From a virus (lineage: Duplodnaviria; Heunggongvirae; Uroviricota; Caudoviricetes): 59,942 nt of DNA. A program made the position numbers and the translations under genes. The notes beneath the pieces were generated by a model. The model had not been told where the DNA came from, did not search any database, and saw only the letters and a list, made by a program, of their open reading frames with translations. Below are positions 36,675-39,014 of the stretch, piece by piece (the stretch's first letter is position 1; the number at the start of each line of letters is the position of its first letter). Where the stretch lies: the IMG/VR virus record IMGVR_UViG_3300045988_167837, one strand, 5' to 3'.

Positions 36675-39014
36675 TTAATCTTCTAATTCATCTGTCGGTG
36701 ATGTCTTCTCGCGCCTGTCATCTATTGCCTGTAACGCAGCAATGATTTCAGCTAATGGCTTCTCCCGGTACATCTCGACGATCTGTGATTTGGTGTATTT
36801 CTTCTCGCCAATTTCCACACGCCCGCTGGCGCTCTTGGGCAGGTATCCTTCCTCCAGCATGTATTCAACCAGAGACTCGACGACGTCCAGCCCGCGAGTC
36901 GGGTCGAAGTAGAATTTCCATGAGCATTTGCCAAACGGAGGCGCGACTTTGTTTTTAATGCACTCGGCGCCAACGTCCTGTCCGATCTTCTCTTTGCCAT
37001 CCTTCATGACGGATGCACCCAGACGGATGCGCACCGACGCGTAGAACTTCGGAGAGTCGCCACCCGGAGACGTAGTCGGATCGCCAAACATCACACCAAT
37101 TTTGGTACGCACCTGGTTCAAGAAGATGATGCACGCGTTGTACTTACGCGCCCAAAGCGCCAGAGTAGGGAAGTTCGCACTTGTCGCGCGCGCCAGCGCC
37201 GTGTTGTCGTTCATGTTCAGCTGATCTTTGTCTTTCGCAGTGCCTTCTGCCATCTTGTCGAACTTCTCAGCCTTCGAGTTCGGAACCATCGACGCCAGAG
37301 AGTCGGCTACGATGCAGATAGGGGCTGTTTCCGGAATAAGCTCTTCGTCGCGCACCAGCTTGAGGATTGTGCCGATCAGCTCTACGGAGTCTTCGAAGGT
37401 ATCCGGCTGTTTGTAGACCCACTGACCGTCATCCTCATCTGCGTTCAGGCCATTGGCTACAGCCAGGCCAACGTCAAAACTGTTTTCATGATCGAGGAAT
37501 ACCGCCAGACCATCTTGTTTTTGAGCGGAGATCATCGCTGCTGTTGCAAGGAATGTGTTGTGGCTGATAATCCCGTTAGACCAGAAAGAGTGTGTTTCCG
37601 GCATCGCTACGTCGAACGTTGGTGCTTCACCTTCCTCAATAGCCACGACTTCGTCGTAGAACAAGTTAGAGCCAATTACCGCTGCCAGTTGTGCAAACAG
37701 ATGCTCGTTAAAACGATTCTTTCTGCCAATGAAGGAGACATAGATTTCTCGCAGTTTGTCTATTCCGACACGATCGCCGCGGCCAATAACGTGGTCTACC
37801 AGAGCGTAGTCTTCACGGGTGGTCTTGGTGAGCGACTCGTAGAGTGATTTCACTAAGCCGCTGATGTGCGGAACATAGCCTGAGTAAGTGCGGTCAAAAC
37901 CAATGTCCCGTTTGGTTGCCACTGATAAACGTGCCGGAGATTCGAAACCAATCGTTGACAGAAAAAGGTCGTAATTAGAGCCACTGAATGACAGCCGGTA
38001 ATATGTATTTTCATAACCCGCGACGTGTTTTTCAGAGATAGTTGACGTAATCCCCAGATTCAGGAGCATGAGGCGAATTTGCTGTAGCAGCAGCCCACTC
38101 GCGCTCACAACCTCAATGCAGCGACCATCATTGACGTGGCATTCCAGCTCAAAGTAGCCGCGAAGGAATGCAATTTGAGCCTCGCTATTGGCGCGACGCA
38201 CACTCAACGGAACCTGCTTGCCAGCAGCTTTCTCATACTCCAGACCATATTCTTTAAAAAGCAGCGAACGCACCTCTTTGCTAAACAGCACATGGTCTTC
38301 CGAGCCGTTATGTTTTCTCGTAACTGGCATCTTGTCTGATACCAGCGAAATGAGGCGGTAGTACTCATCCTTGATGAAAGGATCTGTGTTAGAAAAATTC
38401 ACTGAATTTTCAGAGGCGACGTATCCGTCAGCAATTAAATAGCCCATCAGTTTTGCGATATTGGCATCCAGGTGCTGATCGCCGAATTGATGTGTGCCAA
38501 CCATTGAAGGAATCGTGTCGCCTACACTGATTTTTTCAGCATGTCGCCAGACGACATTACCTAAGTCGTCAACCACACGGATTGGGTGACGGAACGTAGC
38601 CTCGATATAACCGCCTGATGCCAGCTTAATACGCTTGAATTTGCGACGGTTGTTCCATGTCAGGTGTGAGGTCTTCTCTATCACGCCATTTTCATTGATG
38701 AGTCCAACGTTATGCTCTACATCGCGAGTAGTGCATGTCGCTTTGTACCCTTCAATCTCAAACAACTCTTTCACTGTTACCATTCCACGCTCCGTCAGCA
38801 GCATGGTGTCTGCGGTAACACATTTCCCTGCACTTGGAGGACCGAATACTTCGACGATACGACCACATGGGAAGCCGCCATCGTAACGACCAGAAATAGC
38901 TTTGTTTAACGGTGGAAAGCCTGTATCAATCCAATGAGTTACTTTCTGAATTTCGTCGTTGCTACCGATTTTCTTTTTCAGAGCAAGTGCCAGTGCGGAT
39001 TTTCCTTTTGCCAT
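36675..39014 (-). CDS. recA: RecA-family recombinase containing an in-frame intein
   Basis: Exteins align with remembered RecA ([14 protein letters not shown] / TFLATAAM..., [42 protein letters not shown]); 422-aa insertion between Lys64 and Thr of the Walker A motif. Confidence 0.85.
   Translation of the reverse strand: [779 protein letters not shown]
37557..38822 (-). other. intein (422 aa) with LAGLIDADG homing-endonuclease domain, inserted in RecA P-loop
   Basis: Starts with Cys (codon 38820-38822; CVTADTMLL), has TFRHP block-B-like motif, [11 protein letters not shown] and [12 protein letters not shown] motifs, ends ...SNGIISHN (Asn codon 37557-37559) followed by Thr. Confidence 0.8.

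Follow-up and report, generated by a model that had tools for sequence, protein, structure and literature searches.

A predicted class-1 intein with a LAGLIDADG homing endonuclease domain in the P-loop of a UvsX-like recombinase from an SSU5-type phage-plasmid

The IMG/VR virus record IMGVR_UViG_3300045988_167837 (Caudoviricetes) was analysed as a single stretch of 59,942 nucleotides (nt), which we refer to as the window. On the minus strand, at 36675..39014 (stop codon at 36675..36677), it contains an open reading frame (ORF) of 779 amino acids that encodes a RecA-family (UvsX-like) recombinase interrupted by an intein. An initial annotation, made from the sequence letters, had described this ORF as RecA-like on both sides of a 422-residue intein at 37557..38822. 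Our analysis reproduced these coordinates exactly, and the Pfam RecA profile matches the precursor in two stretches that flank the insert (E = 1.5e-36, above the curated cut-off). All parts of the gene given below lie on the minus strand. The N-extein (residues 1–64; 38823..39014) ends in GPPSAGK (38823..38843), which opens the Walker A motif and aligns to GPESSGK of Escherichia coli RecA, where the Lys is K72. The intein comprises precursor residues 65–486, running from CVTADTML to GIISHN. The C-extein (residues 487–779, 293 amino acids; 36678..37556) starts with TFLATAAM and, by alignment to E. coli RecA structures, includes the catalytic Glu segment FLDHENSFD (37473..37499), the Walker B motif ICIVADS (37299..37319) and the L2 DNA-binding loop (37059..37118). 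Together the exteins sum to 357 residues. The precursor has a predicted mass of 86.5 kDa, the spliced recombinase one of 39.0 kDa and the intein one of 47.5 kDa, close to the ~39 and ~47 kDa estimated earlier.

The N-terminal Cys, the TxxH block, the two LAGLIDADG-type motifs and the terminal Asn followed by Thr that were named in the initial annotation are all found in the insert, which greatly exceeds what chance would give. We scored their conservation in 106 full-length homologous inteins, recovered by a search of a representative protein library and aligned with MAFFT --auto. Block A (CVTAD, 38808..38822) provides the nucleophile Cys1, which is shared by 106 of 106 inteins. Block B (38583..38615) contains TFRH at intein positions 76–79, with T76 conserved in 98% and H79 in 96% of the homologues. 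The first LAGLIDADG motif (38421..38453), which is matched by the Pfam LAGLIDADG_3 profile, has the core LMGYLIADG (within intein 125–134) and the catalytic Asp132 (87%), and G127, A131 and G133 are also conserved there. In the second (38139..38171), with the core LRGYFELE (within intein 219–228), the conserved residues are Y223 and the catalytic Glu227 (79%). Lys202 is conserved in 98%. Toward the C-terminal side, block F (37572..37622) includes Asp404 (100%), His411 (89%) and F413 (98%), and block G (37554..37571) consists of IISHN plus the +1 nucleophile Thr, which is T487 of the precursor and at the same time the Thr of the Walker A motif. H421 and N422 are invariant, and position +1 holds T in 85% of the homologues, S in 13% and C in 1%, so that 98% have T or S and all have one of the three. 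At each of these positions, the window intein carries the consensus residue.

Profile searches, which had been proposed as a check, also support the assignment. On the precursor, Pfam LAGLIDADG_3 (E = 2.4e-17) and Intein_splicing (E = 2.1e-11, residues 73–486) scored above their curated cut-offs, as did the NCBIfam models intein_Nterm (residues 65–147) and intein_Cterm (466–487). There were partial NCBIfam matches to models of intein-containing RFC, IF-2, GyrA and DnaB, and several partial matches begin at residues 53–64, taking in the P-loop ahead of the intein. By its sequence, the insert is a class-1 intein with an embedded two-motif LAGLIDADG homing endonuclease domain.

An AlphaFold2 model of the intein, built on a 67-sequence alignment, had a mean pLDDT (predicted local distance difference test) of 95.7 and a predicted template modelling (TM) score of 0.94. 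When it was compared with the Protein Data Bank (PDB) using Foldseek, the best matches were inteins with homing endonucleases, headed by TliVMA (7qss; E = 7.7e-26, TM-score 0.73) and including PI-PfuI (1dq3), PI-PkoII (2cw7), PhoVMA and PI-SceI (1vde). A PDB sequence search returned the same relatives. The endonuclease core (model residues ~120–290) matched I-DmoI with a target-normalised TM-score of 0.68–0.73, and Hint-only structures (4oz6 and 1am2) were matched as well. The model thus predicts both a Hint fold and the pseudo-dimeric alpha-beta-beta-alpha-beta-beta-alpha fold of the endonuclease, in which the second LAGLIDADG motif falls on the helix at 213–227. The solved inteins TliVMA, PI-PfuI, PI-PkoII and PI-SceI have the same architecture, a Hint domain split by a two-motif LAGLIDADG endonuclease. 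They differ from the window intein in sequence (9–22% identity) and in their hosts (V-ATPase, ribonucleotide reductase and DNA polymerase), and the window intein has an extra helical segment in the model (residues 296–385). The TM-scores were 0.62–0.64 for PI-PfuI and PI-PkoII and below 0.5 for PI-SceI.

The position of the insert was determined by comparison with 67 intein-less alleles (7 named and 60 from IMG/VR). All of these, including those from phage SSU5, Yersinia pestis pMT1, Salmonella Typhi pHCM2 and plasmids of Enterobacter, Klebsiella and E. coli, read straight through GPPSAGK/T (here and below, a slash marks the insertion point), and removal of exactly residues 65–486 from the window protein reproduces the intein-less sequence. 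The spliced extein aligns without gaps to E. coli RecA from the P-loop (E. coli RecA GRIVEIYGPESSGKT) through the catalytic Glu, Walker B and L2 loop, and thus the insertion falls between the equivalents of E. coli RecA K72 and T73. In this RecA-family recombinase it therefore separates the Walker A Lys from the Thr, in agreement with the Walker A insertion given in the initial annotation.

The recombinase has all four of the RecA motifs mentioned above, yet it scored below the cut-off of TIGR02012, the bacterial RecA equivalog (325.3 bits), both as spliced extein (156.5 bits) and as precursor (135.3 bits). Its best PHROG match, phrog_9666, is an unnamed family of “unknown function” that contains the 779-residue protein, and the named match is phrog_97, “UvsX-like recombinase.” These matches identify the host protein, at the level of sequence, as a RecA-family phage recombinase, not an orthologue of cellular RecA.

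The gene is 100% identical to one on the E. coli plasmid pSJC33-2 (NZ_CP080257.1; non-mobilizable, 113 kb), and the precursor protein is identical to WP_032328848.1 from that plasmid. Escherichia phage Cyrano has 95% identity to the window recA gene, and over the C-extein the recA of Salmonella phage SSU5 shares 94% identity. The genes around recA are also SSU5-like and encode a 5′-3′ exonuclease, a gp32-like single-stranded DNA-binding protein, DnaE, a CobT/AAA pair and ribonucleotide reductase. Given these neighbours and identities, we assign the window to a phage-plasmid of E. coli of the SSU5/pHCM2/pMT1 type, in agreement with the phage-plasmid host proposed in the initial annotation. The plus-strand ORFs across the recA region are short.

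As an intein, the element is not categorically new, because both the insert and its position, down to the residue coordinates, have been in the literature since 2015. In their survey of RadA and RecA inteins, Topilina et al. (2015; NAR 43:6631, PMC4513877) distinguished five insertion points (a to e), of which point c is at the end of the P-loop, with c1 in archaeal RadA (for example, Pho RadA) and c2 in bacterial RecA. Their Table 1 lists c2 inteins at 65–486 in eight E. coli strains, Enterobacter cloacae, Enterobacter sp. and Salmonella enterica, and one in Thermobifida fusca (96–517) that likewise has 422 residues. The species group, the insertion point at the P-loop and the coordinates 65–486 identify the enterobacterial c2 inteins as the same element as that in the window. 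That survey, which was limited to modelling for this intein, treated it as “E. coli RecA” and mentioned neither plasmid nor phage. In contrast, the copies examined here in complete E. coli genomes are all plasmid-borne, and the gene they interrupt encodes the UvsX-like recombinase of SSU5-type phage-plasmids and is distinct from chromosomal recA. Beyond that survey, our search of the literature on inteins in SSU5-like phage-plasmids or E. coli RecA recovered nothing on this element. What we add is its location on phage-plasmids, its polymorphism (~31% of related plasmids), a homing footprint, a near-isogenic pair of empty and occupied alleles, and its inconsistent annotation.

The initial annotation considered this site unusual, a view that did not hold. 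The Lys/Thr junction of the P-loop is the commonest intein site, and Novikova et al. (2016), who counted 56 RecA inteins, some of them in Proteobacteria, describe the P-loop as the favourite one. Even for bacterial RecA the site is not unusual, as established by Table 1 of PMC4513877 and by our own search, in which the intein alone was compared with 1.84 billion representative proteins. This gave 4,662 hits at E ≤ 0.001, of which 189 reached E ≤ 1e-30, and about 100 of the best 150 hits are RecA-like proteins with an intein at the same site (GK/C...HN/T or S). The closest inteins in this library are 46–48% identical to that of the window, and their exteins are close relatives of the window's phage RecA (extein E-values of 1e-84 to 1e-102). 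Other homologous inteins are at the same GK/C...HN/T or S site of other P-loop proteins, one of which (P0014) has RuvB-type Pfam domains.

Other inteins of recombinases resemble this one in part. The Pyrococcus horikoshii RadA intein (c1) occupies the same Lys/Thr position in an ATPase of the RecA superfamily and is also class-1 with a +1 Thr (PMC4513877). Unlike the window intein, it is an archaeal mini-intein of 172 residues without an endonuclease, and its temperature- and extein-dependent splicing has been shown experimentally. In the published comparison, the inteins showed little sequence similarity, and independent invasion was proposed. The mycobacterial RecA inteins are also class-1 with LAGLIDADG-type endonuclease domains, but they are found in the chromosomal recA of Actinobacteria at other sites, with M. 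tuberculosis PI-MtuI at site a (252–691) and the M. leprae intein at site b (206–570). These sites are at the monomer-monomer interface rather than in the P-loop. The NCBIfam model of the M. tuberculosis-type RecA intein gave the window protein only 100 bits against a cut-off of 1024. Mycobacteriophage TerL1-a, which belongs with the “classic” P-loop inteins (Kelley et al., 2016, PMC5050341), is in a terminase and from a different host phylum.

Intein DNA was detected in 248 of the 802 PLSDB plasmids that carry a related recA (~31%). It is present in 123 of 231 such plasmids from Escherichia, 71 of 329 from Klebsiella, 41 of 91 from Enterobacter, 6 of 25 from Citrobacter and 1 of 49 from Salmonella, and in none of the 63 from Yersinia. 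Among 5,426 complete E. coli genomes, 120 carry the intein, with all 121 copies on plasmids and none on a chromosome. The record can thus be corrected, in that the “first E. coli intein” is in a phage-plasmid gene and was never chromosomal in these genomes. The exact window protein is already public on 224 contigs and falls in a 90%-identity cluster of 1,496 members.

A few copies are damaged. In NZ_CP162200.1 (L013, 2501..2883) only intein nt 884–1266 are matched, beside transposase genes of insertion sequence families, and in NZ_CP074043.1 (L014, 2501..3513) intein nt 79–1091 are on the opposite strand to the flanking recA fragments. For one further locus (L039), the spacing of the N- and C-junctions implies an intein of 1260 nt, that is, a 6-nt in-frame deletion.

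To evaluate mobility, we compared 21 intein-bearing alleles (5 from plasmids or the window and 16 complete IMG/VR loci) in 210 pairs. Intein identity averaged 98.2% (minimum 95.7%) and extein identity 88.4% (minimum 77.4%), and the inteins were more similar than the exteins in 198 of the 210 pairs. In 37 pairs, inteins at least 99.5% identical reside in exteins that are less than 92% identical. Between the window and a Klebsiella allele, synonymous divergence (dS) is 1.49 in the exteins, compared with 0.098 in the intein. On this evidence, the intein is far younger than its hosts. It is also polyphyletic among the extein lineages. For every intein-bearing allele but one, there is an intein-less extein neighbour at 97–100% identity (90.8% in the exception), and 4–5 extein clusters (97–99% single linkage) hold both states. 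The empty twin of the window gene is on the E. coli plasmid pRHB17-C18_2 (CP057685.1) and differs from the spliced gene by 1 base in 1074, the last of the Thr+1 codon, which is ACA in the window and ACG in the twin. The twin is an intact ORF of 357 codons (L003, 2001..3074) for which the plasmid collection's gene table has no feature.

The sequence immediately around the intein is uniform. All 32 intein-bearing alleles (27 IMG/VR loci, 4 plasmids and the window) read GGGAAA/intein/ACATTCCT, and ACATTCCT is absent from all 67 empty alleles (Fisher p = 1e-26, uncorrected for shared ancestry). ACA at Thr+1 was found in 3 of the 60 empty IMG/VR alleles and in none of the 7 named ones. Farther from the intein, the flanks track the local background, with Klebsiella-, E. 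coli- and Salmonella/Enterobacter-type sequences each present in both states. With the junction at 192/193, matched occupied and empty pairs differ at positions 186, 189 and 195 in Klebsiella and at 186, 189, 195, 198, 199 and 201 in Enterobacter. Thus, the DNA that moves with the intein spans only about −7 to +9 nt. The left flank in the window retains the background codon GCA, indicating that only the +3 marker was converted there. This footprint fits endonuclease-driven homing with very short (~10-bp) co-conversion tracts, and the intein appears to be moving, or to have moved very recently, between plasmid lineages.

Empty sites occur in several variants, CCAAGTGCAGGGAAA/ACGTTCCTTGCAACAGC in pRHB17-C18_2, GCTGGTAAA/ACCTTCCTG in Klebsiella and GCCGGTAAA/ACCTTTTTG in Yersinia, Salmonella and SSU5. 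The codons around the insertion point are GGG AAA/ACG TTC CTT in E. coli empty alleles (L003 and L007) and GG(T) AAA/ACC TTT TTG in those of Yersinia, Salmonella, SSU5 and some Enterobacter (L009, L010, L012 and L002). Hosts with the ACC TTT TTG site almost never bear the intein, which target-site resistance or ecology could explain.

In combination, we consider it highly probable that this is a canonical class-1 intein with a two-motif LAGLIDADG homing endonuclease, inserted between Lys64 and the Thr of the P-loop in the recombinase of an SSU5-type phage-plasmid, and that it corresponds to the catalogued enterobacterial RecA c2 intein. By analogy with known inteins, splicing and DNA cleavage presumably both occur. 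The 86.5-kDa precursor should be inactive as an ATPase, because its P-loop is split, with 422 residues between the Lys and the Thr of Walker A. Cys1 would attack the K64–C65 peptide bond in an N-S acyl shift, giving a thioester from which the N-extein would pass to the hydroxyl of Thr+1. Cyclisation of Asn422, assisted by His421, would then free the 47.5-kDa intein, and an O-N shift would yield a 39-kDa recombinase with a native GPPSAGKT P-loop. Either the free intein or the precursor may cut the intein-less recA of co-resident, related phage-plasmids at or near GCAGGGAAA/ACGTTCCTT, and repair of the break from the intein-bearing copy would bring in the intein and only a few flanking bases.

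Several points weigh against this interpretation. No experiment on the splicing or endonuclease activity of this intein was found in the searchable literature, and the recognition site and cut positions are deduced from the insertion point only. The sampled alleles share ancestry, so the Fisher p-value overstates their independence. Moreover, comparison of the window gene (36675..39014) with the corresponding genes in L002–L012 revealed pronounced mosaicism in recA, with three segments whose nearest relatives differ. The first, made up of the N-extein and some 150 nt at the start of the C-extein, is 81% identical to SSU5, whereas the central 650 nt are 97% identical and the final ~80 nt 63% identical. 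This 3′ tail resembles an exchangeable module. Co-resident plasmids therefore certainly undergo ordinary homologous recombination, which could have moved the intein without any action of the endonuclease.

This mosaicism, together with the rearranged and truncated copies, would suit an intein whose splicing is intact and whose endonuclease is no longer active, so that it spreads only by ordinary homologous recombination among co-resident SSU5-like elements and persists because imprecise loss destroys the P-loop. We find this improbable. The two catalytic acidic residues are preserved, as is the conserved Lys202, and the ratio of nonsynonymous to synonymous substitutions (dN/dS) is 0.16–0.29 over the endonuclease part (0.15–0.31 for the whole intein), with open frames in 26 of 26 complete intein copies. 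The narrow co-transferred tract, which recurs in several backgrounds, is also better accounted for by break repair initiated at the site than by random breakpoints.

The intein could instead be retained as a conditional-splicing switch that keeps the recombinase off until a redox, temperature or DNA-damage signal is received, a role that is compatible with homing. Such a function was proposed for P-loop inteins (RadA and DnaB) by the Belfort group (PMC4513877, PMC4760082), the position in the P-loop guarantees an inactive precursor, and the three cysteines other than Cys1 (Cys30, Cys228 and Cys235) could in principle form a redox trap. Yet 69% of the related plasmids are without the intein, including 63 of 63 from Yersinia and 48 of 49 from Salmonella, and empty alleles coexist with occupied ones that are almost identical to them. 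Such a pattern is characteristic of a selfish element that is repeatedly gained and lost, not of a fixed regulator. A regulatory role is thus doubtful. The RefSeq label of most copies (LAGLIDADG homing endonuclease only) could suggest that an endonuclease gene incapable of splicing has been fused into the reading frame, which would leave recA effectively a pseudogene. We reject this as extremely improbable, given that no splicing block is disrupted, the insertion keeps the frame exactly and falls at the Thr that provides the nucleophile, the exteins are under strong purifying selection (dN/dS 0.02) and some RefSeq records already carry an intein-containing name.

Returning to an intein that splices and homes, its endonuclease may give the carrier a competitive edge by cutting the recombinase gene of incoming intein-less SSU5-type phage-plasmids (interference or marker exclusion among incompatible phage-plasmids). 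Splicing might also gate the recombinase to particular conditions, and the fact that the intein is almost missing from plasmids of Yersinia and Salmonella, with their GGT AAA/ACC TTT TTG sites, might reflect resistant targets, not lack of contact. These extensions are speculative, and we rate them as rather unlikely. The occupied and empty alleles, one base apart in a cultivable E. coli phage-plasmid, constitute a tractable natural system that is suited to measuring homing, the length of co-conversion tracts and the effect of the intein on competition between phage-plasmids.

The intein-bearing recombinase also exposes annotation problems in RefSeq and PHROGs. In RefSeq, the majority of copies go by “LAGLIDADG family homing endonuclease,” with “intein-containing recombinase RecA” used for a few. 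The intein-less alleles are named “hypothetical protein” in E. coli and “recombinase” in Salmonella and Yersinia.

Directly downstream of recA is a type I restriction-modification island (27991..36380, minus strand), with hsdR at 27991..31008, a DUF4268 gene at 31023..32186, hsdS at 32196..33527 and hsdM at 33527..35992, all on the minus strand. SSU5 has an SPFH/band-7 gene where the window holds this island, and a 63-residue ORF at 36189..36380 may be a relic of the SPFH/band-7 gene. Across the intein-bearing recA region, no tRNA gene or Rfam family was detected. Four tRNA genes (Ser-TGA, Thr-TGT, Tyr-GTA and Asn-GTT) are clustered at 54493..55146 (minus strand), and a Tn3-family transposase ORF of 988 residues (55361..58327, minus strand) adjoins the cluster.

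Another gene of the window, dnaE (DNA polymerase III alpha; 41992..46304, minus strand), is split by a free-standing HNH endonuclease gene. The first part (787 residues, 43941..46304) corresponds to residues 1–776 of SSU5 DnaE, which is a single protein of 1172 residues, and the second (389 residues, 41992..43161) corresponds to residues 784–1170. Between them is an ORF with HNH_3 and NUMOD3 domains (43158..43892), and all three are on the minus strand. No intein halves were found in the split dnaE, and a search for a group I intron around the HNH gene gave no Rfam match, even at E = 1. The stop codon of the first half is separated from the HNH start codon by 48 nt, and the HNH stop codon overlaps the ATG with which the second half begins. 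For pSJC33-2, the gene table of the plasmid collection lists the HNH gene and neither of the two dnaE halves. The HNH insertion in dnaE was detected in only 25 PLSDB plasmids.

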